Positions 28,458 to 54,908 of a stretch of DNA of 64,000 bases are shown in pieces. Each line of letters opens with the position of its first letter. Within the stretch, counting starts at the first letter, position 1. Both the position numbers and the translations under genes were made by a program. The stretch lies in the NCBI GenBank assembly GCA_965216795.1, contig OZ244196.1, positions 2,263,496 to 2,327,495 on the forward strand. The letters run 5' to 3'. The notes under the pieces are model-generated. The model made no database searches and was not told the origin of the DNA. It saw only the letters and a list, made by a program, of their open reading frames with translations. The stretch comes from Pseudomonadales bacterium. GTDB taxonomy: Bacteria; Pseudomonadota; Gammaproteobacteria; Pseudomonadales; UBA7434.

Positions 28458-30620
28458 ATGAAGTTTTATCGCCGTTTTCTCAACATCATTATCTTCGCGC
28501 CAGTATTGTTGTTAGCGCCATTGGTCAATTCGGCTGTGCTCGACCCGGATAGCTTTGCTTCGCTGGGCACACTCAACTTGACCAGTGGCGATTACACCTT
28601 TGATACCACGGCGATGACGCTGGTCGAAAACAGCGCGCCGGGTACCGTGCTGTTTACTGGCGTCGAAGATAACCAGCGCGGGCAGGCCGATAGTTTTGGC
28701 GGTGGCAGTACGACGGTTGGCGCCAGTGGCATTCCGTACATTGCGGTGTTTACGTTCGATAACATTACGATCGACGGCACCAGCAGCATTACGATCACTG
28801 GTAACCGCGCTCTCGCGCTTTTATCGAAGAATGATATCTACCTCAACGAGCATCTGTCGGTGGACGCGCCATTGCCACCTGCGAGCGGAACGCCAGCTGC
28901 GGCGCTTGGCTCCCCGGGTGGCCCTGGCGGATTTGCCGGTGGAACACCCGGAGTAAACGGCGGCCAGGGCCTTGGGCCCGGCGGTGGCCCGGCACATCCC
29001 AACGCCACCACGCCCTCTAACGCTGCCAGTTTCGGCAGTGTTGGTTTCGTTAACACTGCCGCGGCACCCACTTACGGCGATTTATCGCAAGCCCTGCAAG
29101 GGGGTAGTGGCGGCGCCTCGAGTACAAGTTTCGGCAATGCGGGTGGCGCTGGCGGCGCTGGGGCCATTGCCCTGGTCGCTAATGGCACAACTACGGTCGA
29201 TAGCAGTGGGTTGGTGTCGGCGCGCGGATCGACGTGGCAGAAAAACGGTGTCGCAACCGGTGGTAGTGGTAGCGCGGGTGGCATTATCGTGACCGGCAAC
29301 GAGCTCGTGCTCAACGGTTCGCTCGATGCCTCGTACAACAGCCCAACACCGCCTGGAGGGTCGTTCATTGGCGGTGCAGGCCGTGTACTGGTTGGTGGTC
29401 TCGACAACTACGTGGTTGGCACAACGCCAACAACGCCGGCGTCTGCTGCCAGTGTTTCGGTTGTTGGGCCTTCAAACGACGGCTGGCTAACCATAGAGCC
29501 TCGCAATACCTTTGTACCGTTCGGCCAAACGCTTGAGCTGGGCAACGCGACCGTAGAGCTTCAGGCGCCCACGTTATCGGATATTGGCATTGAAGTTGTT
29601 CCGGGTAACCTCTCTGTGGGTGGCGAAATCACAGTGCCCACCGGCGGCATCAGTTACAACGCAAGTATCGCGTTAACCGGGCCGCTGGGTTCATCCATCG
29701 TCAATGGTTCAGATACGCTGACCATCGATAGCAGTCTATCGGGTACCGGCACGGTCAATGTGCCTGTTGTCGTTAGCACTGGTGGCACGCTGAACATGAT
29801 TGCAGACAGACTAACGTTCCCCGGTGATGGTGTCGCCAACGACGATGGCCTGGTGAACCTCGGCGAGATGAACTTGATCAACTCAGAAATCAATGGCGAT
29901 GTGCGTTCACCTGTAGGCTCGGTGATTAATGTAGCCGGCACTGCAACATTCAATGGTTTGTTTTCTGGCGCGGGTACGTTCTCGGGCACTTCGAATTTGA
30001 TAACGTTCAATGGCGGTTATTCGCCCGGCGACAGCCCGGCAGCAATCAGTTTTGGCGGTGATGTGTCGCTCACATCGGGCAATACGCTGTTAATGGAGAT
30101 CTTTGGCAACGTTGCAGGCAGTGGCTACGACCAGCTAACAGTCGCAGGCAATTTAGCGATTGGCGGCGTAATTGATTTATTTGTCGACCCGCTGCTGACA
30201 TTAAACGCAGGCGACACTTTTAGCCTACTTGGCTGGAATACGGTGGCAGGGCAGTTCGCCTCAGTGCTCGGTATTCAGCAAGCGAATGACCTCGATATCG
30301 CGATTCGCTACAACGCGGGAGATATGGTGGCCAAAGTAGTACCGCGAGGTGATGTCAATGACGACGGTATCGTCAATGGAGATGACCTCTCAGTCATTGC
30401 GGCGAATGCCGGGTTGGCAACTACCAGTTATTTCAGTGGTGATGTTAATGGCGATGGCTTGGTAGATAACTCTACTGGCCCCGGCTCAGATCGCTCATTG
30501 GTCGAGGCGGCGATTTTAAGCGCTGGCGCACAGACTGTGCCGCTTCCGTTCTGGATGCCGTTGTTTTTGCTCGCGTTAGCGGCAATGGCTTATCGTTTGA
30601 AATCGGGAGTTTATCGGTAG
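28458..30620 (+). CDS. large exported Gly-rich beta-helix-like protein with dockerin-type Ca-binding repeats and PEP-CTERM-like tail
   Basis: 720 aa. It has a signal peptide, a Gly/Ala-rich segment (GGAGGAGA...), two dockerin/EF-hand-like repeats (GDVNDDGIVNGDDLSVI and GDVNGDGLVDNS), and the C-terminus VPLPFWMPLFLLALAAMAYRLKSGVYR. Confidence 0.7.
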   Translation: MKFYRRFLNIIIFAPVLLLAPLVNSAVLDPDSFASLGTLNLTSGDYTFDTTAMTLVENSAPGTVLFTGVEDNQRGQADSFGGGSTTVGASGIPYIAVFTFDNITIDGTSSITITGNRALALLSKNDIYLNEHLSVDAPLPPASGTPAAALGSPGGPGGFAGGTPGVNGGQGLGPGGGPAHPNATTPSNAASFGSVGFVNTAAAPTYGDLSQALQGGSGGASSTSFGNAGGAGGAGAIALVANGTTTVDSSGLVSARGSTWQKNGVATGGSGSAGGIIVTGNELVLNGSLDASYNSPTPPGGSFIGGAGRVLVGGLDNYVVGTTPTTPASAASVSVVGPSNDGWLTIEPRNTFVPFGQTLELGNATVELQAPTLSDIGIEVVPGNLSVGGEITVPTGGISYNASIALTGPLGSSIVNGSDTLTIDSSLSGTGTVNVPVVVSTGGTLNMIADRLTFPGDGVANDDGLVNLGEMNLINSEINGDVRSPVGSVINVAGTATFNGLFSGAGTFSGTSNLITFNGGYSPGDSPAAISFGGDVSLTSGNTLLMEIFGNVAGSGYDQLTVAGNLAIGGVIDLFVDPLLTLNAGDTFSLLGWNTVAGQFASVLGIQQANDLDIAIRYNAGDMVAKVVPRGDVNDDGIVNGDDLSVIAANAGLATTSYFSGDVNGDGLVDNSTGPGSDRSLVEAAILSAGAQTVPLPFWMPLFLLALAAMAYRLKSGVYR

Positions 30621-30794
30621 CGCTCGTTGCGACCCGCATTTTGCTGGTGGCGAACGCGTACGAGCGAGACGCCACATCCACTGTGAAGCTGCCCGCGTAG
30701 TGGGGAGCTATTTTCAAGTAGACCGGTCGGACGTCGGGCTAAGCGTCTTTCATTCAATAGGGGGTATTGGTGGGGATGTTCCATGGGCTCAGTG

Positions 30795-30807
30795 TGGTGC
30801 CAGGGGC
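30795..30807. repeat. distal att direct-repeat fragment (copy of tRNA-Phe 3' terminus, part 1)
   Basis: TGGTGCCAGGGGC versus tRNA 55022-55035 TGGTGCCCAGGGGC (identical except for one missing C). It sits exactly at the composition break. Confidence 0.6.
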
Positions 30808-31135
30808 TCTATCACATAATCGCTATATGTTATTGTTTTTAATGAGGTATTTGAATGTGGTCCAGGCGATATACCATCAAATGTACCATCATTTTCTAAT
30901 CGAATCATCCAGATGGGTATCTTCCCTTCCATCAGCCAGGGCGTTTGACTAAAACCTTGCAAACCCTCCTCGCATTGAGGTCTATGACGCGTTTGGTGTT
31001 TGGTTGCAGGGCCGAATAAAATCAATTTTTTAATTACGCTTTGGCTCAAATTTATCTCGAAGGCAAGTAAGTTAGACAGCATGCTACGGGGCCGCCCTCT
31101 ACACGCCTCCGATTTGCTTAACCAAAAAACTCGCT

Positions 31136-33484
31136 ATGAAGACGCCTGACACACGCCAAAAAGATCGGAAAGAACCGTTCGACGCCCCAAACTTGAACAG
31201 TCTATTTATAGAGCCTGAAGCAAGCGTTGACAAAAAGCAGTCTCAAAATGCCAGTTACCTGCGCCGTGAATTTTGTATCGATAAGCCGTTTTCAAAAGCC
31301 ACCTTACTAGCAACAGCCTGTGGCCTATATAAAGGTTTTGTGAATGGCTCGCCTATATCAACAAACCAGTTATTGCCTGGTTGCACCTTCTACAAGAAAC
31401 GCCTGCAGTACCAGGTCTATGACGTCAGCTCACTGCTCAGACAAGGTAGCAACGCCATAGGAGTGATACTAGGTAGTGGTTGGTATCGTGGCAAGCTAGG
31501 TGTTCAGTCGAAGCGCTACCATTATGGGGAAAAGGTTAAGCTTCTTTCCGTCTTGGAAATTGAATTCGATGACGGCAGCAAACAAGTGATCACTACGGAT
31601 AATCTGTGGAAAGCGACGCAAGATGGCCCGATAAGAAGTCATGACCTCAAAGATGGCGAGCACTATGACGCGACACGTGAAATGGAAGGTTGGGATCAGC
31701 CCGGATTTGACGACCACAATTGGCATGAAGTCTATCCAGCAACGTTTGATGCTTCATTAGTGCCTACTGAAGGTGAGCAAGTCGCTGAAAGAGAGCGCTT
31801 TAAACCAACGGTGTTAATCACACCCGATGGTTCTACGGTACTCGATTTTTCTCAGAATCTCGTCGGCTACGTTGAGTTTTCGGTAGATGGAACAGAGGGC
31901 CAAACGGTCAAGCTGACGCACGGAGAAACGCTCGATGAAAACGGCAACTTCACGCTAAAAAACGTCAATATGGAGAACCCCTTTTTTTCTGCCCCAAAGA
32001 GCCTGCGGCTGCAGCAAGAAGTTGAGGTGAGACTAAAAAATGGTGCGATGACCTACAAACCCTCTTTCTCCGTACATGGGTTTCGCTATGTAAAGCTGGA
32101 GAACTGGCCAGGTGATGTTGACCCCGCGCGCTTTACCGCAATAGCGCTGTATTCTGATATAGAAGAGACTGGTCATTTCGAATGCTCACACCCGATGATC
32201 AACCAGCTCTTCAAAAACGCTGTCTGGAGCCAGAAGGGTAATTTTGTTGATATCCCAACCGATTGCCCAACGCGAGAAAGAGCCGGCTGGACGGGTGACA
32301 TCGCTTCATTTTGCGAAGCGGGAACCTACCAGATGGACACCTACAACTTTCTCTCCAGGTGGATGAAAGATGTCGCGCTACAACAAGAAAGTAATGGCAA
32401 AGTGCCTAGCATTGTCCCTGAGGTGGGCGTCTCAAAAATTTCTGATGGCAGCGCAGGCTGGGCAGATGTGGCGACCATCGTTCCTTATACCCTCTATAAA
32501 ATGTACGGCGACAAAACCATCTTAAAAGAGCAATACGCCAGCATGAAAATGTGGGTGGACTTTGTCGACCGGCGCGCAAAGAAGACGCGCTTTTGGAACA
32601 AATTAAAAGGCAACCCTAATCTGGATTACCTGGTCGACACAGGCTTTCACTTTGGCGAGTGGCTCGAACCTGGCCATAGTATGGGCAAGGATCTCATAAA
32701 ATGCTTCGTATATTCTGATGCCGAGGTAGCAACAGCCTACTTTGCCTACTCCGCTAACCTGCTGTCGCAGATGGCCGGGATACTGGGTAGCAGCGATGAC
32801 CAGCAAAAATACCTGGACATCTCCCAGAAAGCCAAAGATGCCTATCGTCATGCGTTTACCGACAACGGCATCGTCCAGTCGAAACGCCAGGCACGCTATG
32901 TTCGACCCATTGCGCTGGACTTATTGCCCGAAGATGATAAACGCAAAAACGCGTTATTACTCAACGATATGATCGTAGAAAACCAATACCGTATTGGTAC
33001 CGGGTTTTTGACAACGCCATTTATTCTTCCTGTGCTTACCGACTACGGCTATCTCGAAAGCGCGTACAGGATGATCGAAAACGAAGATATACCGGGATGG
33101 CTATACAACGTTAAAAATGGCGCCACAACAATTCTAGAGAATTGGGAAGGTATCGGCACGGACGGAAAGCCTGTCGACTCATTTAATCACTACGCGTTTG
33201 GTGCGGTCACCCAATGGCTTTTCACCCATGTTGCAGGTATTACACCTTTGGAGCCTGGCTTTCAAAAAATCCAGATTCGCCCCTTTCCCGGTGGCAGCTT
33301 GACCCATGCAAACTGCACCTATAAAAGTGTCGCCGGCCCGATAAAAAGCAGTTGGCTGATAGAAAACTCGACGTTTTACTTGACAGTTGAGACTCCATCC
33401 CCGACCACGGTCATATTACCTGATGGTGGAGTGCACCAGCCTTCAGCAGGAAAGCATACATTTACGTCGCAGATACCTGCCTAG
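31136..33484 (+). CDS. alpha-L-rhamnosidase (glycoside hydrolase family 78)
   Basis: 782 aa with the GH78 hallmark DIPTDCPTRERAGWTGD, plus the typical N-terminal YLRREF...A.LLATACGLYKGFVNG and the C-terminal catalytic (alpha/alpha)6 region FNHYAFGAV. Confidence 0.85.
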   Translation: MKTPDTRQKDRKEPFDAPNLNSLFIEPEASVDKKQSQNASYLRREFCIDKPFSKATLLATACGLYKGFVNGSPISTNQLLPGCTFYKKRLQYQVYDVSSLLRQGSNAIGVILGSGWYRGKLGVQSKRYHYGEKVKLLSVLEIEFDDGSKQVITTDNLWKATQDGPIRSHDLKDGEHYDATREMEGWDQPGFDDHNWHEVYPATFDASLVPTEGEQVAERERFKPTVLITPDGSTVLDFSQNLVGYVEFSVDGTEGQTVKLTHGETLDENGNFTLKNVNMENPFFSAPKSLRLQQEVEVRLKNGAMTYKPSFSVHGFRYVKLENWPGDVDPARFTAIALYSDIEETGHFECSHPMINQLFKNAVWSQKGNFVDIPTDCPTRERAGWTGDIASFCEAGTYQMDTYNFLSRWMKDVALQQESNGKVPSIVPEVGVSKISDGSAGWADVATIVPYTLYKMYGDKTILKEQYASMKMWVDFVDRRAKKTRFWNKLKGNPNLDYLVDTGFHFGEWLEPGHSMGKDLIKCFVYSDAEVATAYFAYSANLLSQMAGILGSSDDQQKYLDISQKAKDAYRHAFTDNGIVQSKRQARYVRPIALDLLPEDDKRKNALLLNDMIVENQYRIGTGFLTTPFILPVLTDYGYLESAYRMIENEDIPGWLYNVKNGATTILENWEGIGTDGKPVDSFNHYAFGAVTQWLFTHVAGITPLEPGFQKIQIRPFPGGSLTHANCTYKSVAGPIKSSWLIENSTFYLTVETPSPTTVILPDGGVHQPSAGKHTFTSQIPA

Positions 33485-33532
33485 CAGCATAGCTTCGGGT
33501 TTGGCTGTATGAGGCCGGGTATCGAGTGGGTA

Positions 33533-33543
33533 GGAATCGAACC
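33533..33543. repeat. att direct-repeat fragment (copy of tRNA-Phe T-arm segment, part 2)
   Basis: GGAATCGAACC is identical to tRNA positions 55036-55046, the 11 nt that directly follow the segment copied at 30795-30807. The T-loop is conserved in many tRNAs, so on its own this is weak evidence. Confidence 0.4.
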
Positions 33544-33680
33544 GGTTCCCTTGATAAATCAAAAAAGGAAAAGTCCTTTTATAACAACTCACTAACCAAG
33601 ATTTGTTCCATTCAGGGGCGCAATCACGATAATCACATAACTAATTGATATATAATGTATATTTCCCCTTCTATTTGATC

Positions 33681-33700
33681 ATATACCCCCAGATATACCC
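33681..33700 (+). repeat. tandem ATATACCC(C) motif pair near left island end (candidate integrase arm-type sites)
   Basis: ATATACCCCCAGATATACCC. A near-identical tandem pair (ATATACCCCAGAAATATACCCCC) lies at 54886-54908 next to the integrase, in the same orientation. Confidence 0.5.
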
Positions 33701-34090
33701 ATGAAGGTGTCTACCTCATTGCAAGACATTTACGTGAATGGGCCGATTGGCCGATGAGGGCGGCGTAGCTAAATTTTATTGTTGAGGTGATACTGCCTCT
33801 CTTTACGCTCCCCCAGCATACCGAGCATCATCGAGAAATCCTAAAAGGCCAAAGCTGTACAAACGGGGATAGGTGCTGTTTAGTGGCCTGTTTTTGAGCC
33901 TAGAGTGTAATACTCTGAGCGGCAAAGCTTTACCTCCTAGCTGAAAACAGAGCGCCACCCTGCAAGTAAAATCTGACGTTTTTGCGACGATATATTTTAT
34001 TGTTGAAGTTAAGATATGTCGGTGCTCAAAATGGCAATTAGACCTATCAGAAAAATTGGACTGATTGGTTGAATTTTCGAGGATATTTGG

Positions 34091-35407
34091 ATGTCAGAAG
34101 ATGAGATGATTGCAGCGATAAGTGCTCGCTTAGTTTTCGAGGCGGAAAAGTCAATAGACAGAAACGGTAAGGATACTGATCCTCGTGTTGCGGCTATTGC
34201 TATTGGGGTTGATAGAAGCGCTCGTCACATCGAAGAAATCTCTGTGGGTACGCAGACGTTAGAGGTGGTTGTCGCCCATCGAAGTGAATTCTATGCAGAT
34301 GAGCATGCTGAATTCACTTTGCTAGAGAGAAAACTAATTAATGAGACTGTAAACGGCGACAGCTATAGACTGTTCGTAACTTTGGAGCCTTGTTCAAAGC
34401 GTGGCGAAACGAAGCGGCCGTGCGCTGAGAGGGTGATTAAAAGAGGGTTGACGAAAATAACAATTGGCATGCTTGATCCCAACCCAAAGATATTTGGTAA
34501 CGGTGTGCATCGGTTGCTGAAAGCGGGCGTGAAAATCGATTACTTGCCGCCCTCTGCAAGAGAGAATATTCGTGCTATCAATGAAGATTTTATCGACGAT
34601 CAACGAAGAACCTTCTCTTTCAGAGACTTTATTAAGGAGCTTCCGCAAGCCTTCATATATCCAAAAGAAGCATATCTGTATTCAGTTTACGTTTTATTTC
34701 GACACTATAGCCCTGAGAAGATAGCTGGTATAGAGAGCCTTCTAGATACAGAGCCGCATGATGATAGTCAAGGTCGGCAGAAATACAGCGTTGTTATTGC
34801 AAACACCGCATTGAACACGTTTCTGGATCCGCATGAATTTCAGGCGTCACTGGCCCAGGGTTTTGCGGAGAACCGCGGATTGGAGCGAATCTACCTGATA
34901 TGCACTAACAAAGATATTGCAAAGGTTAAGCGGCTTTACGACAGCGATTCACGTTACCGCGAAGAAATTGACTACATTCTTGAAAGCCGTAACAGTGCTA
35001 TTTCTGTGTGTATTGTTGCTGATGAGCCAGAAGTCCTTGAGGTTTCGCAGGACCAGATGGCGAGTCGATCAGCAGAGGTAGGCGAGCAAAGTGCTGGTGC
35101 GTTAGAGAATAGCGCTGATGATAGTAAAGGAGTGATTTTGTTTGGCGAAGATCCACTTGAAAGCGCGCCGGATGGGCTGCCACATTTTGCTGTGGTTCGA
35201 CAGGGGGTGCCCTTACATGATCCAGAAGCTGAAGAGGATGGTGTTGTCAGTCACCGATTGTTCGCAGTTGTAGCTTCCAATAACCTCGCTTATAGAAAAA
35301 AAATGGTACAGAGATGGAAAGAGTGTCAGGGTGTTTTACAGAGTAGTGCTAGAAGTGGGGAGTTGAAGGATCTGAGGTGGTGGCTGCCCAAGATTGAAAA
35401 CTCTTGA
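34091..35407 (+). CDS. RibD/CDA-type zinc deaminase domain fused to a roughly 270-aa domain of unknown function
   Basis: 438 aa. Deaminase zinc motifs ADEHAEFTLLE (HAE) and VTLEPCSKRGETKRPCAERV (PC...PC with RibD-like long spacing), followed by GMLDPNPKIFGNGVHRLLKAGVKI as in the RibD N-domain. The C-terminal two-thirds has no motif I recognise and contains an acidic low-complexity stretch. Confidence 0.7.
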   Translation: MSEDEMIAAISARLVFEAEKSIDRNGKDTDPRVAAIAIGVDRSARHIEEISVGTQTLEVVVAHRSEFYADEHAEFTLLERKLINETVNGDSYRLFVTLEPCSKRGETKRPCAERVIKRGLTKITIGMLDPNPKIFGNGVHRLLKAGVKIDYLPPSARENIRAINEDFIDDQRRTFSFRDFIKELPQAFIYPKEAYLYSVYVLFRHYSPEKIAGIESLLDTEPHDDSQGRQKYSVVIANTALNTFLDPHEFQASLAQGFAENRGLERIYLICTNKDIAKVKRLYDSDSRYREEIDYILESRNSAISVCIVADEPEVLEVSQDQMASRSAEVGEQSAGALENSADDSKGVILFGEDPLESAPDGLPHFAVVRQGVPLHDPEAEEDGVVSHRLFAVVASNNLAYRKKMVQRWKECQGVLQSSARSGELKDLRWWLPKIENS

Positions 35408-36522
35408 TTGAGGAAAGTACAGTGGATGCCAGGCTAAAGGCGGCTGAGGCCTTAAAAGATTGGGGTAGAAATGAGTATGAGGTGGTATATGGTACAAGCG
35501 TGGAGGCCTTCGCTGGCGTTGGCGCCAAGCACTCCCTAAAAATCTCGGGCGCAAAAGGGCCTGAAGGGGCGTGGTCAGAAATTCAAGCCTTTATGAAGGC
35601 AAATGAGAATTGTCCAGCCGTTTTTCAAATTGGTTTTGACATTCATTATGCTGAAGATCGGACTATTGGTACTATTTTTATTCCGGACCGGGTAGAGCAA
35701 TTCAAGTCTGAAAGTGGTGCAGATCATAAAGATAGCGCCAATCACGTGAGCGAATATGTTGGTAGCAGTGAAGTATCACATGTCGAGACAGTTAAACGTG
35801 CTCTAGATTGGATTGGTGGTGACAAGAGTAGAAGATTAACTGTCGCGAGGCGTGAAATTCTAGATTATCGAGGCGATCTGTTGGATTCGGTGCAATTTGG
35901 CCCTCGCTTTGATGAAGAGGCGCTTACTAGATCCTGTTATTTTCGCTCTCCAGATCTCGCTTTTTTAAGTCAAAGCCCCGAGCTGCTCGCTATGGGTAAG
36001 GGGCCGACATTTAGTACCTATAAACTGTCAGGAACTGCGGGCCTAGACTCCCGAGACGAAGAAATGCTTTCTGACATTAAGCTTGCCGAGGAGCATGATC
36101 TTTCTGCGGCGGCGATGCTTGCATCGTTGAGCAAGTTAGGTCACTGCAGGCGATTGCCGGCAGTGGTTTATCGCTGCGGTGCTTTGAAACATATAATGAG
36201 TGAGTTTAAAACAGACATAGGTTTAAGCTCTTCGTTCATTGACTGCGTAGAGGCAGTCTTTCCAGTTGGTGCTAATCCGGTAAGCTCAGGTCTCGATATG
36301 CTTGTGAAGCTAGAAAAATCAAATAGAGGACCATACTACGGGGTATATGGGATCATTGAACCGGATATGAGTTATTCGGTCTCACAGAATATTAGATCTA
36401 TATTTCTGCGAGATGGCGTCTATGAGGTCTGGGTGGGCGGATGCGTTACTTGGCGTTCAGATCCAGTCGATGAATGGAATGAAACGGAGTTGAAACTAGC
36501 TAGTTGTCCTAAGTTAATATGA
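35404..36522 (+). CDS. chorismate-utilising enzyme family protein (TrpE/PabB/EntC-like core, short and divergent)
   Basis: 372 aa. Family motifs SPELLAMGKGPTFSTYKLSGTAG (SPE...GT) and NRGPYYGVYGIIEPDMSYSVSQNIRSIFLRDGVYEVWVGGCVTWRSDPVDEWNETELK (RGxYxGxxG...IR...GxGxV..S.P..E..ET..K). The TTG start overlaps the upstream stop (TTGA). Confidence 0.7.
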   Translation: MIEESTVDARLKAAEALKDWGRNEYEVVYGTSVEAFAGVGAKHSLKISGAKGPEGAWSEIQAFMKANENCPAVFQIGFDIHYAEDRTIGTIFIPDRVEQFKSESGADHKDSANHVSEYVGSSEVSHVETVKRALDWIGGDKSRRLTVARREILDYRGDLLDSVQFGPRFDEEALTRSCYFRSPDLAFLSQSPELLAMGKGPTFSTYKLSGTAGLDSRDEEMLSDIKLAEEHDLSAAAMLASLSKLGHCRRLPAVVYRCGALKHIMSEFKTDIGLSSSFIDCVEAVFPVGANPVSSGLDMLVKLEKSNRGPYYGVYGIIEPDMSYSVSQNIRSIFLRDGVYEVWVGGCVTWRSDPVDEWNETELKLASCPKLI

Positions 36523-37229
36523 ATCAATTATACACTTACGAATCCTTTCGAGCGAAGCTCTGGCGTATTGCGGCTAGAAAAGCGAGCAAGGCGCATCCCT
36601 GGTTTAGTCTCATCATTGACAGAAAATTGACTAGAGAGCAGGTCATTGCTGGTGAGATGCAGCATTATCTAAGGGTTTTGAAAAATGAGGACTTTTATAG
36701 GTCCATTCTAAAAAATGCTGAGGCTGAAGGCGATGAGCGAGTCATTAACGTTGCAAGGGCCAACTATGAAGAGGAGGTCTTATGCGATCCTAGTCATGCC
36801 GATTTGCTCTTCCAGCTGCTTGATGAGGCTGGTTATGCGAAAGAACACTGTGTGGCCGTTTCTCCGTCTAATTCGACACGTTTCGCAATCGACAGTATTT
36901 TAAGATTCTGTGAGGAGAAGTCTGCGATTGAGGGCATCGCATTTACAGCTTTTGTCGAAGCTCAAAACGCTGGTGAGAAAGGCGTTGCTTATAAGGTGTA
37001 TCAAGCGTTAACAGAGCATTATGGCTTTAGCAAGCATGGTGCAGAAACATTTCTTGAGCATTCAATTGTGGATGAAGAGCACGGAAAACGTCAGATTGAT
37101 CTAGTTTGTGAGGTGGCTACAGATATAGAGCTTCAGGCAAGGATCATAAATGCCGTTGAGGCTGGCACAACGACTTTCTCCATAGAGTGGAGTGGTCATC
37201 TTGAGGCGGCGCTAGGATTGAGAGATTAA
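36519..37229 (+). CDS. heme-oxygenase-like diiron oxidase (CADD/PqqC/TenA-superfamily iron-containing redox enzyme)
   Basis: 236 aa. N-terminal HPWFSLIIDRKLTREQVIAGEMQHYLRV. Candidate diiron ligands lie in the canonical spacing: E-x6-H (EEEVLCDPSH), FVEAQNAGE, and HSIVDEEH (H-x3-D-x2-H). The ATG overlaps the upstream stop (ATGA). Confidence 0.65.
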   Translation: MNQLYTYESFRAKLWRIAARKASKAHPWFSLIIDRKLTREQVIAGEMQHYLRVLKNEDFYRSILKNAEAEGDERVINVARANYEEEVLCDPSHADLLFQLLDEAGYAKEHCVAVSPSNSTRFAIDSILRFCEEKSAIEGIAFTAFVEAQNAGEKGVAYKVYQALTEHYGFSKHGAETFLEHSIVDEEHGKRQIDLVCEVATDIELQARIINAVEAGTTTFSIEWSGHLEAALGLRD

Positions 37230-37978
37230 CCAAATCTTTCCATAAGCGGCTTCTCGATAGCTTGTAGATACAAGTAGTTTATCAATCCCCCTGTGATCAT
37301 TAGTGCAAATATCCCTAGGTACATCTCTTCATAAAGGAATGCTCTACTTGCGTCTAGGATAAATCTGCCAATACCATCGCTTCCGATTATCATATCGGAG
37401 GCTACAGCAACGATAAGAGAAATGGGTATTGAGATTCTTATGCCGGTGATTATTGACGGAATCGCTGGGGCGAATAAAAAATGGTACGCTCTTTTTTGTC
37501 GAGTTAGTGGTAGTACTAACCCGAGGTCTTTGGTTCGGGGATCAATGTTGGTGGCTCCAGAAAGAGTGTTTATCAATATTGGCCATGATGCGCCGAAGAA
37601 AACAACAAATATTTTCATGGTGTCGTCAATTCCTAGGAATAGACTTGCGACGGGGATTAAAGCGATTGGAGCAAGCGGGCGGAATAGCTCGATAATTGGT
37701 AGTGACAGCGCTCGTAACGTTGGCAGGTTTCCTAGCAGCAAGCCGAGTGGAACCATTAGTAGGGTCGCGAAACTTAGTCCCGCTATGGCTCTATAAAGCG
37801 TGATTGCGATGTCTAGAGGTATTGATGGCCAGCTGTTTGCGGAGAATCCTTGAGAAAAGATGCTGAATATACTAGGAAATAGTTTTGGGTCTGGTGCCAA
37901 CTTAGCTAAAACAGTCAGTTCCCATGTCAGAATGAACAGGGATATAGAGGCTACTGAGTAGATAAATCGTTTCATCAT
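37226..37978 (-). CDS. ABC transporter permease (NitT/TauT family)
   Basis: Six TM helices with an EAA-like loop region (ASWPILINTLSGATNIDPRTKDLG). Start ATG at 37978 overlaps the ATPase stop (ATGA). Its stop shares the tetranucleotide TTAA (37226-37229) with the convergent gene. Confidence 0.85.
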   Translation of the reverse strand: MMKRFIYSVASISLFILTWELTVLAKLAPDPKLFPSIFSIFSQGFSANSWPSIPLDIAITLYRAIAGLSFATLLMVPLGLLLGNLPTLRALSLPIIELFRPLAPIALIPVASLFLGIDDTMKIFVVFFGASWPILINTLSGATNIDPRTKDLGLVLPLTRQKRAYHFLFAPAIPSIITGIRISIPISLIVAVASDMIIGSDGIGRFILDASRAFLYEEMYLGIFALMITGGLINYLYLQAIEKPLMERFG

Positions 37979-38733
37979 GCATCGACCAGATACGAATATA
38001 TCTCTTGCCACTTCTCACCGTAATCGGCAACGCTATCGGTTGGATCGTCGGAGTTTATGCGTCGGTTCTCAATTGCCATATCTTTGATAACACTAAAGCC
38101 ATCTTTTCCCACAATAATGATCCGGTCACTCAGGCGAATTGCTTCATCAATATTGTGGGTAACCAATAGAACGCCTGGGCTCTTAGAGCTTGTCTTAAAT
38201 ATATCTAGAACGTCTTTTTGCAATTTAAGTCTCGAGATGTAATCCAGCGCTCCGAAGGGCTCATCAAGCAGCCACCAGCTTCGATTGCCAGCGATACAGC
38301 GGGCTAGTGAAACTCGCTGCTGCATGCCTCCTGACAGTTGGTTGGGGAATTTTTGATAGTCGTCCACTGAAAGCCCGGCGATACTTAAGGCTCTTGCGGC
38401 TAATTTCTGCCGCAACCAAATACTGCCCACATTTTCTTCAATTCCTAAAGCGACGTTATCTAGGGCTGAGAGCCAGTTGAGCAAAGAGGCGGAAGCATCT
38501 TGAAACGCATATGCACAATGGCTATGAGCCTCCTTAACTTGGGTGCCATCAAGAGAAATATGTCCTTGCAGCGGCTCCAAGAGGCCGCAAATCAACCTTA
38601 GGAGAGTAGACTTTCCGCATCCCGATGGGCCTAGAATTGTCGTCCACTCTTCGTGACGCAGCTCAAAGCTGAGATTATCTATCAGCGACCGATTATCACT
38701 GAAGTTGTAAGTTAGGTCTCGAACCTGGATCAC
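37975..38733 (-). CDS. ABC transporter ATP-binding protein (NitT/TauT family)
   Basis: Walker A GPSGCGKSTLLRLI, signature LSGGMQQRVSLAR, Walker B WWLLDEPFGALD, and an H-loop VTHNIDEA. Confidence 0.9.
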   Translation of the reverse strand: MIQVRDLTYNFSDNRSLIDNLSFELRHEEWTTILGPSGCGKSTLLRLICGLLEPLQGHISLDGTQVKEAHSHCAYAFQDASASLLNWLSALDNVALGIEENVGSIWLRQKLAARALSIAGLSVDDYQKFPNQLSGGMQQRVSLARCIAGNRSWWLLDEPFGALDYISRLKLQKDVLDIFKTSSKSPGVLLVTHNIDEAIRLSDRIIIVGKDGFSVIKDMAIENRRINSDDPTDSVADYGEKWQEIYSYLVDA

Positions 38734-38755
38734 GATGCGCTCGATTTAACTTTGC

Positions 38756-39730
38756 CTATTGGCTCTGTGATATAAAGCCAATATCAATAAGTAAGTTCTT
38801 TACCCAATCTAGGTTTTCTTGTAAAACTTCTGCGTTAAACTTGGGCAAATTCATCGTTTCTAGTTTTTCCGCAGGCATGCCAGTGTATTCGGAGATCGCA
38901 GATTGTAAGATCTCTTCGTTTTCATCAATAAGTACCGTGGAATCTTCCATGGCTAGTACAAACTTCCTAGCTAGCATTTGGTTTTTTGCCAACCAATCCG
39001 TATTGGCCACATACATAGTCATTTGGAAGCTTGATTTGGTGTCCGCGACGTGATGGGCTGCCAGCGATAGCTCGGGGTTCCCGAGAGCAGGTGACAGAAA
39101 TGGCTCTATCATAGATGCATACTCGACTGAACCAGCTAGAAGCTGTGCTTCCATCTGAGAAAACGGCATCTCAATAAATTCTATATTTGCATGTTCTCGC
39201 CCGACAGTAGTTAAGTAAGCGACAGAGAATGCATGATCTAGGCTTTTGTTTACATTAATCGCAAACCGAGATCCTTCAACGTCTTCAAGACCATCGCTAG
39301 ATGTGACGATACCCTGGTAAGGGTTACTGGTCGTTTGGACTGATCCTCCAACCACTGGTGAAACTTTAAAGCCACGATCTCTCGCTTGGACGTATGGCAC
39401 CGTTCCAGTGAATCCGAACTCAAGATCTCCGGTTATCACGCCTTGAAGGATTATGGCGCCCCCTTGCGCCTTGACGAGTTCTACATCTAAACCGTGTTTC
39501 AGGAATAACCCATTCTGCTTAGCAACATAGAGTTGAGCTGAGTCCGCAATTGGGATATATCCGACCTTTATTTTCTGGACCAATATTTCGTTCTGTGAAG
39601 GGGGCTCTCTATCGCTGCACGCAGAGATACAAAGCAGTGCTGACACAATTGTCGTCCATAGAAGAAATCTAGGCGCCCGGAAGATACAAAATATATTATA
39701 TAAATGGAGATGGGTGCTGTTAGATCTCAT
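38756..39730 (-). CDS. ABC transporter substrate-binding lipoprotein (NMT1/THI5- or sulfonate/nitrate-binding-like)
   Basis: Start moved to Met59 of the track ORF. This gives a signal peptide ending in the lipobox LLCISAC and removes the overlap with the recombinase gene. The periplasmic-binding-protein type-2 fold pattern (KIKVGYIPIADSAQLYVAKQNGLF) is typical of NitT/TauT SBPs. Confidence 0.75.
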   Translation of the reverse strand: MRSNSTHLHLYNIFCIFRAPRFLLWTTIVSALLCISACSDREPPSQNEILVQKIKVGYIPIADSAQLYVAKQNGLFLKHGLDVELVKAQGGAIILQGVITGDLEFGFTGTVPYVQARDRGFKVSPVVGGSVQTTSNPYQGIVTSSDGLEDVEGSRFAINVNKSLDHAFSVAYLTTVGREHANIEFIEMPFSQMEAQLLAGSVEYASMIEPFLSPALGNPELSLAAHHVADTKSSFQMTMYVANTDWLAKNQMLARKFVLAMEDSTVLIDENEEILQSAISEYTGMPAEKLETMNLPKFNAEVLQENLDWVKNLLIDIGFISQSQ

Positions 39731-39809
39731 GCTATTGTCCAGAAATTCAAAGTTGCTGAAGGGCTTTAATTTAGCGCATAAATGCCTGATATAGCTATAG
39801 TTTGGTCTG

Positions 39810-40940
39810 TTAATCCTCCAGATTAGCCAGTTTCTGAGGATCAAATAGGTTGGCTCTCGAAGCAAGCTTGTCAGCAACTTTGTCTGCGAAGACTTCGATC
39901 GCATTGGGCATATCGCCTATCTGTTTAAGTCTGGATAGGATTTCTTGCTGCCGCCTGTTCTGAATTTCACCATAGCTGTAGAAGGTGGTAAGCACGCCTT
40001 GGTGGCCTAGATTTTGGCTCCATGCCTTAAACTCCTCTGGAGAGCGGCACCTCTTCTCGCCCAGTAAGACTAATGTGTCCCGGAAAGTGTGAGGATTCGT
40101 GTAAGGTATTTCGGCTTTTTGGAAGGCTTGTTTGAAAATACGACGAACTGGGCCCGAGTTTGACCAATGTTCCCTGCTAAGTCTCTGGCTGGACGTTTCT
40201 TTCTGGCCGGGGGGCGTAGGTTTTGATTTTGGAAATATTGGGTCGTTTGGAGTAAATCTCTCTTGGTTGGTCAGGTGCTGTATCCAGTCTTGAACAATGA
40301 CTTCAAATTCCTCGCCCACGGGAAAAAAGTAGCTTGTAAATGACTTGCTTGCTTTAGTTTTGACCTCTCGGGCGTCCTGGTAGAGTGATCGGTTGGGCAG
40401 ATCTAGGTGCTTCAGTTTGAAGCTGATCACAGCTGAATCTCTTGCCCCGGTCAGAAGAATGAAGGCGACTAACGCGCGATCTCTCATCTCAGTAGAAGTC
40501 CTTGTCGGCATGCTATCCACCACCGTGGCAATATCTTCAATTGTGGGTACGTGCTTCCTGCGAGTGGCCCTAGCTATTCTGTCTTCCTTGGCGGAGAGGT
40601 TGAAGTACTCTGCATGGGGGTAAGCAATCTTTGATTTGTAGCCCTTCTGTAACGCCAGCCACTCAAAAAAGGCCTTCAGCTGCCTCAGAGTATGACTTAA
40701 CGTAGACTTGCTCAGAGGCTTGCCAGAGCGCTCTCCCAGAGCCTTGGCCAGTTTGTGCTTGAATCCAGTTGCCTGCTCTTTACAGAAGGTCTTGAAGCTT
40801 CTGTGGTTAGTATATGCTTCAAATCGAGACAGCGCCTTAGCAGCGGTATCAATCGTAGAGGCGTCATAGCGTTTGGCCTCTTTGAGAAAATCAAAATACT
40901 CGCGCTTGATCCGCTCGTTTTCTGGGTTGTATTTAGCCAT
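39810..40940 (-). CDS. tyrosine recombinase / phage-type integrase (second integrase of the island)
   Basis: 376 aa. Catalytic residues in order: LLTGARDSAV (Arg), NPHTFRDTLV (H-x-x-R), LGHQGVLTTFYSYG (His...Tyr), with an N-terminal SAM-like core-binding domain. Confidence 0.85.
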   Translation of the reverse strand: MAKYNPENERIKREYFDFLKEAKRYDASTIDTAAKALSRFEAYTNHRSFKTFCKEQATGFKHKLAKALGERSGKPLSKSTLSHTLRQLKAFFEWLALQKGYKSKIAYPHAEYFNLSAKEDRIARATRRKHVPTIEDIATVVDSMPTRTSTEMRDRALVAFILLTGARDSAVISFKLKHLDLPNRSLYQDAREVKTKASKSFTSYFFPVGEEFEVIVQDWIQHLTNQERFTPNDPIFPKSKPTPPGQKETSSQRLSREHWSNSGPVRRIFKQAFQKAEIPYTNPHTFRDTLVLLGEKRCRSPEEFKAWSQNLGHQGVLTTFYSYGEIQNRRQQEILSRLKQIGDMPNAIEVFADKVADKLASRANLFDPQKLANLED

Positions 40941-41036
40941 CGTTACTTACCTATCTGAAGTCACCATTTAAAGGGCGTGCGTAGCAATCTATTAATTGTC
41001 ATTAGTGCCAGTGGGTGGCGGGCCAGCTGAGCGTGC

Positions 41037-41417
41037 CTAGTTGGATAATTTTGATCGACTAATGAATCGGACCATCCGATTACCGCATATGTTGCAATCA
41101 CCGGTTAGGCGGCCCGTTTTGCTGTCTTGCGCCATAAACTCGACGCTGTTCTGGGTCGGTTTGCGTGGTTCTTTACAGCACATGCAGTAGAACTCGTCAG
41201 GCTTACATCGGCGTTTTCTTGACTTTTTCCTCGCCTGAATGAATGACCTTAGATCTGAACCGTGAACAAGTAGGGGTCTATTCGAGTCTATGGTTTCGAG
41301 TCCAGACTTAAGCCAGCGATGAATAGTATTCCTGTGACAACTGAAGAGGTCGGCTACTTCATCGAGGCGGTAGCAGCGATTCTGCTTGACTAGATAGGGG
41401 TTCAGTTTGCGATTCAT
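41037..41417 (-). CDS. HTH DNA-binding protein with C-terminal zinc ribbon
   Basis: 126 aa from ATG 41417. HTH region YRLDEVADLFSCHRNTIHRWLKSGL and two CxxC pairs (CMCC...CNIC). It sits one base after the AlpA-like gene. Confidence 0.6.
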   Translation of the reverse strand: MNRKLNPYLVKQNRCYRLDEVADLFSCHRNTIHRWLKSGLETIDSNRPLLVHGSDLRSFIQARKKSRKRRCKPDEFYCMCCKEPRKPTQNSVEFMAQDSKTGRLTGDCNICGNRMVRFISRSKLSN

Positions 41418-41418
41418 G

Positions 41419-41616
41419 CTACTGAATCCTTGAGTCGCGCTCTTCGACACGTGCTGCAATCCAGGCCAGCACATCTTCTTCTACCCAACCAACAGACCGG
41501 CCACCCAGCGAAACTTGATGGGGAAAGAGGTTGGCCTGCATGCGGCGGTAAATAGCGCTACGGGATAGGCCGGTGAGTTCTTTAACTGCGGGTAATCGAA
41601 GAATCTTGCGATACAT
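41419..41616 (-). CDS. AlpA-family phage/island regulatory protein (excisionase-like HTH)
   Basis: LRLPAVKELTGLSRSAIYRRMQANLFPHQVSLGGRSVGWVEEDVLAWI is the AlpA/Xis-type signature. Start taken at the internal Met (41616). Confidence 0.75.
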   Translation of the reverse strand: MYRKILRLPAVKELTGLSRSAIYRRMQANLFPHQVSLGGRSVGWVEEDVLAWIAARVEERDSRIQ

Positions 41617-42946: not shown

Positions 42947-43909
42947 GTGAATTTTGATCTATTTTCGGATCTCCCTCCAATCAAGTTTAATCCGTCTAAG
43001 GTGGCTTTCGGGCGCCATGAAACGTTCGGCTTGCGCTACAGCTGGCTGCCAAAGGGCTTCCACGCATTGCAAGAGAATCCAGCGATATTCGACTCAGAGG
43101 ATGCTACCGTGGCCCTGGGCGTCGGCAAGAATATGGTGTCGAGTATCCGCTTTTGGCTGAGAGCGACGCAGATGATGCACGCTGCAAAGCCAGAGCCCAC
43201 GAAGCTAGGTGAGAGGGTGCTAGATCGCGAGTCGGGATACGATCCATTCTTGGAGGATGAAGCCACAATCTGGCTACTACATTGGTTGCTTTGCACCAAT
43301 ACAACCTGGGCAACGTCTTGGTACTGGTTCTTTAATCGGTACCATAAGACTGAGTTCACTAGCCAGGAGCTAACTTCTGCGCTTTCAGACTTCGTCAAGG
43401 AAGAGATTCATCAAGCTCGCCGTCCGTCGGCAAGCACAATAAAGAACGATGCGGGTCTGATTCACCGGATGTACTCACAGTCGAAAGGCATAGGCCGGAT
43501 GCCCTTGGAGGAGGCACTGGATTCTCCACTATCTTTATTGCGTTTGATTACGCAGTCTTCTGCAGGCCGATCATTCCGATCGGCTCCGCAGTCCGATCGC
43601 TCTTTGCCGATTGGAATACTCGGTTTTGCCGTCTCTCAGCTTTTTCATGCCAAAGATGTGAACCTGATCCCGATCGAAGATTTGATGTATTCGAAGGACG
43701 GATTTCCAGCGCCGGGCTCTTTGTTTAGGTTGACTGAGGGAGTACTACTTCAAAAATTAGAGATGTTGGTTGATTACATTCCAGGAAATCTCGTAGTGCG
43801 TGAGACCGCTGGAATACACCAGCTCTATGCTACAAAGTCTTTGAATCCAACAGATTATTTGGATTGGCACTACGAGAGCGCCGATAGTGGCTCAGGAGTG
43901 GCGGCATGA
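42947..43909 (+). CDS. sspB: SspB-like protein (DUF4007 family) of ssDNA phosphorothioation systems
   Basis: 320 aa with a GTG start. The N-terminal FGRHETFGLRYSWLPKGF matches the conserved DUF4007 opening motif as I remember it. It lies directly upstream of, and overlap-coupled to, a large P-loop ATPase and a PAPS-reductase-like gene, which is the sspBCD arrangement. Confidence 0.65.
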   Translation: MNFDLFSDLPPIKFNPSKVAFGRHETFGLRYSWLPKGFHALQENPAIFDSEDATVALGVGKNMVSSIRFWLRATQMMHAAKPEPTKLGERVLDRESGYDPFLEDEATIWLLHWLLCTNTTWATSWYWFFNRYHKTEFTSQELTSALSDFVKEEIHQARRPSASTIKNDAGLIHRMYSQSKGIGRMPLEEALDSPLSLLRLITQSSAGRSFRSAPQSDRSLPIGILGFAVSQLFHAKDVNLIPIEDLMYSKDGFPAPGSLFRLTEGVLLQKLEMLVDYIPGNLVVRETAGIHQLYATKSLNPTDYLDWHYESADSGSGVAA

Positions 43910-46900
43910 AGTTTGCTAATAAGCTTAATGTCAATAGCCATTACACACGATCGATTAACCTCGAGCGAGATGCAGACTCGCTAGGAGTTGTTCAATCATA
44001 TATCCCGACCTCCAGAGCGTTGCGTACGCTTGGCCGGATGACGGAAACATTTCACGAACAAACAGCCCCTAGGGCTTGGTCTCTGGTTGGGCCTTACGGT
44101 TCTGGTAAGTCTTCTTTCTCAATCTTTAGCTCTAAACTGCTCGATAATCCAAGGTCAAAGACAACTCAATCAGCGATCAAGGTGCTTGCTGATGTGGAGG
44201 ATTCGCTCGCCACACAATTTAAGGCACAGACTAGGGGTACCAAGGGTTTCCTGAGCGTGTTGATCACGGGTTCGCCAGAGCCTATGACGCGGCGAATTGT
44301 TAATGCGCTTTCGGAGGCTGCGGGTCGGTATTGGTCAGATCGGAAGGGCAAGAAGCCTACCATTCTCAAGCGTCTCGCAAGTGCCGATGCTGGAGAGTTG
44401 TCTTCTAATGATTTGCTTGCGCTGATAAAAGAGCTACAAATTCAGCTGGAGAAAGCAGGATGTCCTGGAATCCTGCTCATCATTGATGAGCTAGGTAAGT
44501 TCCTAGAGTATGAGGCCCGCCATTACGGCGCCAATGATATCTTTTTGTTGCAGACGCTTGCAGAACACGCCTGTTCAGGCGGGAAGGTTAACCTATATCT
44601 GTTTGTTCTCTTGCACCAATCTTTTGAGCAATATGCGAAAGGGCTTGGTGAAAATTTAAGGAACGAATGGTCAAAGGTCCAGGGGCGCTTCGAGGAGGTG
44701 CCATTCCTCGAGTCCGCGGAGCAAACTCTGCGCGTTGTCTCAGCAGCGTTCGATCATAACCTGTCAGCTGGCGACAAGCGCCAGCTGAAGAAAGCTATGC
44801 AGTCTCATGTTGATGTCTTGGCTCGTGTAGATGCCTTGCCAGGTGTGATGACTCGTGAGGAGAGTGTCAAGCTCTTTTCCGATTGCTATCCATTGCATCC
44901 CATCTCTGCCATCTTGCTGCCTCTTCTGTGCCAGAAGATCGCGCAGAATGAGCGAACGCTCTTTAGCTATCTAGGGAGCCAAGAAGACTTTGGTGTTCAA
45001 TCAATCGTTGATGAATTGGTGAGTATCGATGAGTACATCTACCCTGACCAGATTTTCGACTATTTTATTGCGAACCAGTCCGCCGCCATAGGAGACTACC
45101 TAACTCACAGGCGATGGGTTGAAGTTGTCACAGCGATGGAGCGTTTAGGGGATGCTTCTGAGCTACAAGTCCGCATTCTCAAAACCATTGGCATACTGAA
45201 TATCGTAGGCGCCAAGGGGGGGTTCAAGCCGTCCAAAGACCTACTCTCTATCTGTTTTCCTAGCAAGGCTGCCTTGACTAAAGCGTTGAAAGCACTAGAG
45301 GCAATTTCGGTCATTACTTTCCGTAAGTTCAACGGTGAGTACCGTGTTTGGCAGGGTAGTGATTTTGACTTGGAGGATGCGCTTCAGGAAGAAGTTAACA
45401 ACCTCGGCATCTTTTCTTTGGCTGAGGAGCTTAACCGCTCTCAGTCATTGCTACCGATTGTCGCGCGCCGGTACAGCGTGACAAGTGGGACTCTGCGCTA
45501 CTTTCGACCCATCTTTGTCGATGCTAAAAATTATATAAAGATTGATCGTGGCTCAAATGATCCTAGGATAATATTTTTTCTAGCGGGCGGGCAGGATGAT
45601 GAAGCTCTCTTTCAAGATGAAGTTCGAGAGCACTTCTCTAAGCTAGACCTAATAGCCTTGTGTAAGAACGGCGCCCAATTGCGAGAGGCGGTTGCAGAGT
45701 GTGAGGCGCTCAAGCGCGTTCAGATTAACCGCCATGAGTTGAATGCCGATCCCGTCGCTAAACGGGAGTATGAAGATCGATTGTCGTTGGCTGAGCAGGC
45801 CGAGACCTTTTTGTTGCAACAATTGGTCGAAGAGCCGGACCTAAGCCAGTGGTATTGTGAAGGACGGCATTATTCTGCGCATAATAAACGGCAGCTTCAG
45901 AATGTGATGAGTACGGTCTTGGAGGCAGCCTATGATAAGTCGCCCATCATAGATAATGAGCTTATCAATCGAGATAGGCCTTCATCTCAGGCGGCGGCTG
46001 CGCGGAATCAGCTCCTTTATCGCATGCTGTCGCGTGGCGATCAAGAAGATTTGGGCATAGAAAAGTTTCCCCCTGAAAAGGCAATCTATCGTTCATTACT
46101 CAAGGCAACAGGGCTGCATAAACGCGCAAAAAGTGGAGAGTGGCAGTTCTACGCTCCGACCAGTCGAGGTGCTGCGGCCGCACGATATGCAAATTTATAT
46201 CCGGCCTGGCAGGCGATCGATGCCTTCCTAGATTCTACGGAGGCTGCGCCCAAATCCTTTGTAGAGCTGAACGCTAAGTTGATGTCGACACCATATGGAA
46301 TTAAGGCGGGCCTTCTTCCGATTTTGTACGTTGCCAACTACATAATCAATCAGCATGAGATAGCCATCTATGAAGGGGGCCGGTATCGGCCTGAGTTTAC
46401 CGAAGAGATGATCGACCGGTTCGTTAAGCGCCCTGATGAATTCGCATTTCAGCGGTTTCGTATCAAGGGTCTTCGAGCGTCCCTCTTTAGGCAGTATTCG
46501 AAAGTCATACATGGCGACACTGAGCAGCGCTCAATCTTAGATCTGGCCAAGCCTCTAGCCACGTTCATGTCCCAGTTACCAGAGTACACGCGTAAGACTC
46601 GTCGCGGTGTTGGTAAGAGTGCCCAGGCGGTGCGCACTGCGTTTGAACTCTCAAAGTCTCCTGAAGCGCTACTGTTCGATGCGTTGCCGGAAGCGCTGGG
46701 TTTCGAAGGTTTGTCTGAAAGTTCTGATGAGGCTGTCCTAGGTCAGTTTGCTGAGGATCTTACAGATAGCTTAAGAGAGTTGAAGCTGGCTCACAGCAAT
46801 CTAGTGCTTGGGCAGCGTCAGTTGTTGGCGCGGTCAATTGGCTGTGACGAGAATTCAGATCTTTCAGAGTTGAGGATCAATATCGTCGGCTTATGCAGTG

Positions 46901-48266: not shown

Positions 48267-48268
48267 GT

Positions 48269-54828: not shown

Positions 54829-54864
54829 TTTGGTCCTCCAGATCACCAGAAAGAGGGGCTAGTA

Positions 54865-54908
54865 GATACCCCAATGAGAAATTCGATATACCCCAGAAAT
54901 ATACCCCC
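54865..54908 (+). repeat. three (G/A)ATA(TA)CCCC motifs between integrase and tRNA (candidate arm-type sites)
   Basis: GATACCCC (54865-72), ATATACCCC (54886-94) and ATATACCCCC (54899-908). The last two form a tandem pair nearly identical to 33681-33700. Confidence 0.5.

Follow-up and report, generated by a model that had tools for sequence, protein, structure and literature searches.

Probable tandem or nested accretion of two related elements at the tRNA-Phe gene of a Pseudomonadales bacterium, with a GH78 rhamnosidase remnant outside a P4-type integrase island

Known tandem islands and the layout of the tRNA-Phe locus

Tandem accretion is known from cis-mobilizable elements (CIMEs) related to ICESt1 and ICESt3 of Streptococcus thermophilus (Pavlovic et al. 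2004; Bellanger et al. 2011; reviewed in Guedon et al. 2017, PMC5704250). The history described for these elements consists of integration, decay and a second integration into the regenerated attR attachment (att) site, while nested integration and composite arrival are acknowledged as well (PMC5704250). In the Islander survey, tandem arrays at tRNA genes (tDNAs) were common, with 125 cases (Hudson, Lau & Williams 2015, PMC4383910). Tandem accretion at a tRNA gene is an ordinary, well-described route of genomic island growth. Here we describe a 24.2-kb block of low GC content (30808–55021) that lies at a tRNA-Phe gene and has a GH78 alpha-L-rhamnosidase gene at its distal end. The block was analyzed within a 64,000-nt stretch of a Pseudomonadales bacterium genome (assembly GCA_965216795.1, contig OZ244196.1, positions 2,263,496–2,327,495 of the forward strand), referred to as the window; all coordinates are those of the window. 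The block is probably composite, with two members of a single element family stacked at the tRNA-Phe 3' end. The explanation we favor with fair confidence is tandem or nested accretion, with a GH78-bearing remnant (E1) stacked outside a larger island (E2).

According to this explanation, the map would run from the chromosome through site A, E1 with the GH78 gene only, site B and E2 (21.4 kb, with the integrase) to tRNA-Phe. E2 (33626–55021) would be complete, with a P4-type integrase, GGGGTAYAT sites on its two arms, and att cores formed by the tRNA at one end and by site B at the other. E1 (30814 to ~33612, 2.8 kb) would be decayed, having kept the outer junction A with its P'-arm and the GH78 gene and having lost the integrase and the proximal arm; the loss of the integrase-proximal arm by deletion is presumed. 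Three histories would yield an identical final map. E1 may have integrated and decayed before E2 entered the regenerated tRNA, E1 may have integrated into the attL of E2, or E1 and E2 may have arrived as one composite.

The locus resembles the S. thermophilus CIMEs in having two related elements next to each other at the 3' end of a single target, with an internal att (the core of site B plus its P' arm, paralogous to A) between them. A further likeness is that the outer element has no integrase or mobility genes and keeps att-type junctions and a cargo gene. The three-step CIME history (PMC5704250) fits the map. Unlike the CIMEs, the locus has a gammaproteobacterial host (Cellvibrionales/Pseudomonadales-like), a P4-type integrase and a tRNA-Phe target, and no conjugation genes were seen. 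The remnant att sites are also decayed and the integrase-proximal arm is gone, which would make cis-mobilization of the E1 remnant doubtful. As in the Islander tandem arrays at tRNA and tmRNA genes, the ends of the elements are marked by an intact tDNA and a series of displaced 3' fragments, all in direct orientation. Unlike the strict Islander definition, which needs an integrase in every array member, E1 has a fragment (A) and no integrase, so that automatic calling would give a single 24-kb island or overlook the inner junction.

The pheV/pheU islands of Enterobacteriaceae are tRNA-Phe-integrated islands. The symbiosis island of Mesorhizobium loti also integrates at tRNA-Phe (Sullivan & Ronson 1998, as cited in PMC4383910). 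The locus shares with these islands the target gene, integration at the 3' end and a short direct repeat. The cargo differs, consisting here of an Ssp/Pbe phosphorothioate defense module and GH78. For annotation, two stacked elements would mean that the island has three att-type landmarks instead of two, that its functional left end for the resident integrase lies at ~33.6 kb, and that the rhamnosidase is part of a distinct module, either older or nested. A carbohydrate-active enzyme with its nearest relatives in distant phyla would be stranded as the last gene of a decayed element beside a phosphorothioate defense island. The structure is of a known kind, and the current understanding of island biology is unchallenged by these findings.

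Junctions A and B and the arm-type sites of the resident integrase

The single tRNA gene in the window, tRNA-Phe(GAA), was located with ARAGORN on the minus strand at 55022–55097 (76 nt) and is the integration target. Read on the plus strand, its 3' end (55022–55046) is TGGTGCCCAGGGGCGGAATCGAACC, and positions 55022–55041 form the proximal att core (attR). Two-segment analysis placed GC change-points at 30808 and 55023, which correspond to the inner edge of site A and the tRNA's 3' end. Chromosomal genes had a GC content of 0.54–0.63 and a third-codon-position GC content (GC3) of 0.59–0.81, compared with a GC content of 0.44–0.50 for the block 30808–55021. The GH78 gene (GC 0.485, GC3 0.53) was inside the island range. 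All 24.2 kb are foreign DNA, including the GH78 gene, which matches the island in GC and GC3 and is therefore foreign like the rest of it and not ancestral chromosome. The order mutY then tRNA-Phe was kept in approximately 60 of 80 Cellvibrionales/Pseudomonadales-like loci, and since many related contigs break at the tRNA, the gene is a hotspot. Among the relatives, displaced pieces of the tRNA-Phe 3' end with a CCA anchor were common, in repeat classes of 17, 20, 23–24 and at least 45 nt.

The block has the two ends of an island at a tDNA: an intact tRNA whose 3' end is directly followed by an integrase gene in the same orientation, and at the far end a displaced 3' fragment that is CCA-anchored, in direct orientation and short, with a 1-nt deletion. 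This fragment, site A (30795–30813, plus strand), is the outermost one and marks the boundary between chromosome and island. Positions 30795–30807 (TGGTGCCAGGGGC) equal tRNA positions 55022–55035 minus one C of the CCC run, as claimed in an earlier note on this DNA, which had been made from the sequence alone. The layout of the site is TGGTGCC-AGGGGCtctATC, with 13/14 identity to the tRNA, followed by three mismatches and then ATC (30811–30813). The absent base falls in G69–G71 of the tRNA. Displaced tDNA fragments recurrently carry small deletions 3 bp upstream of the discriminator (PMC4383910), and site A lacks one G at the same place. Crossovers at the junction of T- and acceptor stems are a recognized class that gives short repeats (PMC4383910), so a 14–17-nt repeat need not reach the T-loop. 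The context of site A makes it credible: it begins precisely at the CCA end, is correctly oriented and has its edge at the GC change-point at 30808, and the earlier proposal that 30795–30807 is a genuine distal tRNA-Phe repeat held on these grounds.

Site B (33613–33625, plus strand; CAGGGGCGCAATC) matched tRNA positions 55029–55041 at 12/13 nt and is interpreted as an internal att core, the left end of E2. Its tRNA terminus (TGGTGCC) is absent or decayed. In the alignment of the two sites, A reads CAGGGGC-TCT-ATCAC-ATAATC...ATATACCAT..ATGTACCAT and B reads CAGGGGC-GCA-ATCACGATAATC...ATATACCCC..ATATACCC, so that the homology, collinear over ~100 nt, starts at the tRNA-like core and includes a tandem pair of arm-type sites for the integrase. 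The local alignment score of A with B was 31, against an island background of 13.4 ± 2.3 from real sequence, and the ten best matches of the A spacer all fell within 33541–34010 (10/10). Global alignment of 30795–30895 with 33601–33707 gave 74% identity over 92 columns and a score of 37, compared with a real-sequence background of 5.6 ± 3.2 (maximum 19; z 9.8); none of 1000 block shuffles reached 37. The alignment was independently reproduced with MAFFT. As judged from this similarity, A and B are two paralogous attL-type junctions, each with a tRNA-like core and a distal arm. Both have mutations in the core, in its T-loop-proximal part, and for this reason efficient excision of either E1 or E2 is now unlikely. 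On the chromosomal side of A, the sequence GATGTTCCAT (30775–30784) was found to recur as GATTTGTTCCAT (33599–33610) immediately outside the core of B. Reading the TTGTTCC of B as a decayed TGGTGCC was dropped, being weaker than the MAFFT pairing of B with 30775–30784.

The resident integrase of E2 (53620–54846, minus strand) is a P4-type heterobivalent tyrosine integrase with the Pfam domains Arm-DNA-bind_3 (E-value 4e-25), Phage_int_M (2e-30) and Phage_integrase (1e-17). Homologues follow tRNA-Phe in the loci L052 and L081 (both 61% identity) and L002 (50%); L081 belongs to TARA scaffold414951 (458 kb) and L002 to Cellvibrio sp. ARAG 10.3 (NZ_JBPYCU010000003). L081 came from the metagenome scan with the integrase and L052 from the genome scan, and the distal ends of their islands lie outside the flanks covered. 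Aligning the tRNA-to-integrase spacers of the window and these three loci yielded the motif GGGGTAYAT, present in all four as a pair that is spaced by ~12 nt and lies immediately upstream of the integrase gene. Across the window, exact or near-exact copies formed just two non-coding clusters, each on the minus strand: 54864–54907 (three copies: GGGGTATCT, GGGGTATAT and GGGGTATAT), which is the integrase-proximal (P) arm, and 33681–33701 (two copies, GGGGTATAT and TGGGTATAT, 12 nt apart), the putative distal (P') arm of E2. The P'-arm-like sequence of E1 (30814–30889, plus strand) has AC-ATAATC in common with B and carries diverged putative arm-type sites, ATGGTATAT (30869–30877) and ATGGTACAT (30881–30889), both on the minus strand and 12 nt apart.

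The same arrangement was found in independent elements. In L102, an integrase with 49% identity lies in a 7.5-kb island at tRNA-Met with a 23-nt repeat, and a motif of its own (GGGGGCAAC) is present on both arms. Three viral contigs from IMG/VR (L127–L129) encode an integrase with 44% identity and have an intact attP (for example, L127 11150–11480), in the order two copies of GGGGTACAT, 58 nt, a tRNA 3' fragment, a terminator, GGGGTATAT/GGGGTACAT with an inverted copy, and the integrase gene. The distance from the T-stem edge to the first P' site was 58 nt in L127, 60 nt in L102, and 59 nt in both A and B, and the spacing of the P' site pair was 12 nt in all four. Because this both-arm architecture recurs in L102 and in L127–L129, the GGGGTAYAT copies are most reasonably read as arm-type integrase sites. 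Their position would place the distal arm of the resident integrase at ~33.7 kb, not at 30.8 kb. The complete attP of these contigs, with the GGGGTAYAT motif on both arms and a strong terminator after the tRNA fragment, is a useful reference for this integrase clade.

Like the lambda, P4 and HP1 types of attP, the system combines an N-terminal arm-binding domain with tandem pairs of a 9-bp motif, 12 nt apart, on both arms and at a constant distance from the core. Domains for arm binding, core binding and catalysis are all present, and one short motif occurs on both the P and the P' arm. The motif co-varies between elements, being GGGGTAYAT in the window and L127 and GGGGGCAAC in L102. In comparison with the lambda, P4 and HP1 systems, binding is here predicted from sequence only, and the crossover would lie in the T-loop or at the junction of T- and acceptor stems. 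Conserved arm-site pairs 58–60 nt from the T-stem edge mark island ends, a mapping rule for cases in which the tRNA repeats are short or damaged.

The same data bear on a rival explanation, in which there is one island with one true attL (A), GH78 is its distal cargo, and B with its arm sites is an internal P' arm duplicate or a secondary regulatory copy. This would agree with the presence of just one integrase with matching arm sites, with the GC content of GH78, with the want of a recognizable integrase-proximal arm in E1 and with the missing tRNA terminus of B. However, the arm sites with the exact motif for the resident integrase are at B, and A has diverged copies. At 74% identity, A and B look more like two diverged members of a family than like the products of a recent internal duplication, and B keeps a 12/13 tRNA-like core at the canonical distance, which is not required of an arbitrary duplicate. 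We consider a single island of this kind unlikely.

The GH78 segment and the 11-nt tRNA match beyond it

The interval 30808–33532 consists of a 328-nt spacer, the GH78 open reading frame (ORF; 31136–33484, plus strand) and a 48-nt tail, both spacers being AT-rich. The ORF is intact, encodes 782 aa with all four GH78 Pfam domains and is the sole gene of E1, which agrees with the earlier description of the interval as AT-rich spacers and a rhamnosidase gene. Sites A and B, both mutated, flank the segment, and the idea that it forms a module with boundaries of its own at the island's distal end was retained. No remnant of an integrase or other recombinase was detected in 30600–34100, and no ORF of the segment other than GH78 matched a family. 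The closest homologues of GH78 outside the source genome were only 62% identical and came from uncultured members of diverse phyla (names including Promethearchaeota, Spirochaetota and Chloroflexi). This phyletic spread suggests long-range transfer.

Just beyond the GH78 gene, positions 33533–33543 (site C, plus strand; GGAATCGAACC) are identical to tRNA positions 55036–55046, as the earlier note had reported; no att core was assigned to them. Joined to 30795–30807, they give 24 of the 25 nt of the tRNA 3' end, also as reported. The sequence directly after the 11-mer, from 33544 onward, is GGTTCCCTTGATAAATC, and the core of site B sits 70 nt inward. This specific 11-mer is expected 0.03 times per window, and five 11-mers of the 76-nt tRNA, this one among them, recur elsewhere in the window. 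For some tRNA 11-mer on that strand in the 936 nt of spacers, P was ~0.01–0.03, and lower for the specific 11-mer. In 3.3 Mb-strands of related loci, the 11-mer occurred twice outside tRNAs and obvious tRNA fragments.

From these pieces, the earlier note had derived a model in which a single 25-nt attL (TGGTGCCCAGGGGC|GGAATCGAACC) was cut between its positions 14 and 15 by a 2.7-kb GH78 insertion (30808–33532). The pieces do abut exactly in tRNA coordinates and in the same orientation, the 11-mer is rare by expectation and outside tRNA contexts, and a 14-nt repeat looks short because related repeats often include the T-loop (20–24-nt classes; 23 nt in L102). Against this, the DNA to the right of 30807 shares homology with the P' arm on the right-hand side of B and has arm sites at the canonical 59 nt, which is unexpected of the end of an arbitrary insert, whereas the 11-mer is 146 nt from the distal arm sites by the same T-stem-edge measure, compared with 58–60 nt. 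There is also no clean break: past 30807|30808, the similarity of A to both the tRNA and site B resumes after TCT with ATC. The apparent breakpoint is a 3-nt mismatch within a continuing alignment, and the abutment of A and the 11-mer in tRNA coordinates is for this reason weaker evidence than it appears. The junctions showed no target-site duplication (30803–30807 GGGGC | TCTAT versus 33528–33532 GGGTA | GGAAT), no terminal inverted repeats at the insert ends and no transposase or integrase remnant. In addition, crossovers at the junction of T- and acceptor stems give short repeats (PMC4383910), and four other tRNA 11-mers recur in the window by chance. An attL interrupted by the GH78 segment is improbable and not supported on this evidence. 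The alternative offered in the same note, two decayed repeats from tandem integrations, is essentially favored by the A/B paralogy and the arm geometry, except that the second repeat is 33613–33625 and not the 11-mer.

Other origins of the 11-mer were considered. A fragment of another tRNA was rejected, as no Infernal/Rfam match at E ≤ 10 was obtained in 30600–34100. By inspection, only 2/5 T-stem pairs formed in register and there was no CCA-type end. The T-loop of an unrelated tRNA remnant, which the earlier note had named as a source that would overturn its model, was not supported either, with no tRNA-like signal and no T-stem pairing. The 11-mer with its GGGTA-containing flank was also compared, as a decayed P-arm of a lost integrase, with four P arms; the similarity was not significant, and this origin was rejected too. 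Site C lies within the near-palindrome GGAATCG-AAC-CGGTTCC, 49 nt past the GH78 stop codon, and pairs as a 7-bp hairpin in the predicted fold, which was not better than that of shuffled sequences (z-score −1.4). As for a candidate terminator of GH78, no T-run follows the hairpin, and the consensus scan lists no terminator-like site at 33533.

A more speculative possibility, to which we assign little probability, is that the GH78 module is a still-mobilizable, integrase-less 'att cassette' and not a dead remnant. Such a cassette would consist of a cargo gene and its own distal arm with variant sites (ATGGTAYAT), captured and released at the distal att of a helper island by the P4-type integrase of the helper. 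Islands of this family would then grow by nested capture at attL, and the recombination site of the cassette would include the 11-mer at 33533 and its hairpin.

Several observations weigh against the stacking of E1 and E2. The 11-mer is rarer than expected by pure chance, and stacking leaves it unexplained. P-arm similarity or arm sites would be expected on the outer side of a chimeric internal att and were not found in 33485–33612. The diverged arm sites of E1 have ATGG in place of GGGG and may be decayed or never have been functional. MAFFT pairs the outer GATTTGTTCCAT of B with GATGTTCCAT at 30775–30784 over the outer 10 nt (rough P 0.007), and on this pairing, B lacks 15 nt including the tRNA terminus; the resemblance may be due to chance, or it may be the scar of a deletion that removed the integrase end of E1 and clipped the tRNA terminus of B. 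No related genome with E2 alone or E1 alone was found. In the blind scan of the window, approximately 20 other positions scored as well as site A against the 3' half of the tRNA, and neither A nor B was individually significant as a tRNA match, so that the case for two stacked elements rests on position, on the mutual homology of A and B and on arm-site geometry. Separately, the outer side of B was tried as a homologue of an integrase-proximal arm and rejected as not significant (104/1000 shuffles reached the score).

The background-level scores of A and B against the tRNA in blind local alignment would also suit an explanation by coincidence, in which the tRNA-like strings at A, B and C arose by chance and the low-GC block arrived by another route. 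However, A is CCA-anchored, has the right orientation and matches the GC change-point to the nucleotide, the integrase adjoins the tRNA, and the arm-site architecture is repeated in independent elements, which makes coincidence very improbable. Stacking of E1 and E2 by accretion remains the preferred explanation. If B is the attL of E2, the junction of B with attR would read ...TGGTGCCCAGGGGCG(G/C)AATCACGATAATC, and a chromosome flank with E2 only would, if the two elements are indeed stacked, read ...GGGCTCAGTG + TGGTGCCCAGGGGCGGAATC + ACGATAATCAC.

Flanking loci and contents of E2

In the mutY genome scan of 80 loci, the best of which were 60–65% identical, none had GH78 or the left-flank genes, so that the scan yielded neither an empty site nor an island lacking GH78 for comparison. 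High-identity matches to GH78 and to the first E2 gene came from the source genome only, with the next at 62% and 40%, respectively. The gene of the left chromosomal flank (28458–30620) encodes a 720-aa Gly/Thr-rich surface protein with a PEP-CTERM-like C-terminal anchor. This protein had no Pfam match and no relative detected among the GTDB species representatives, and exact-protein look-ups for the left-flank gene and GH78 gave no record. At the tRNA-Phe of five other loci (L010, L020, L061, L064 and L065), a 20–24-nt tRNA-Phe 3' fragment was observed only 80–180 nt downstream of the gene, and the tRNA terminator is present there a second time. These fragments may represent miniature scars flanked by att sites, or very small elements that occupy the hotspot.

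Based on Pfam and PADLOC, E2 contains a metabolic and ABC transporter cluster, a backbone of a second integrase (int2) and HTH_17, SspBCD-PbeA/PbeC defense genes and the P4-type integrase. Outward from this integrase, the order is the PbeC/DndD-like gene, PbeA, SspD, SspC and SspB, then HTH_17 with the second tyrosine recombinase, an NMT1-type ABC transporter and a trio of haem-oxygenase-like, chorismate-binding and deaminase-like proteins. The defense genes form a hybrid phosphorothioate module (42947–52745) of SspB (42947–43909), SspC (43906–47418), SspD (47415–48266), PbeA (48269–50401) and a PbeC/DndD-like ATPase (50607–52745). No SspA-type cysteine desulfurase was seen in the island, and no family was assigned to two small ORFs at 52742–53429.

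At the other end of E2, the cluster 34091–39904 encodes a 438-aa RibD-like deaminase fusion, a chorismate-binding enzyme, a Haem_oxygenas_2/TENA-like protein and a divergent NMT1/THI5-type ABC transporter, and it may represent a small aminobenzoate- or pyrimidine-related pathway. The cluster was without close relatives; the next homologue of the RibD-like fusion was 40% identical over half its length. The second tyrosine recombinase and its HTH_17 protein (excisionase/AlpA-like; 39810–41474) also occur in L052 (18774–20260) and L101 (7574–9149). The pair accompanies the P4-type integrase in two other elements, with 54% and 38–45% identity, and looks like a conserved backbone of the island family.

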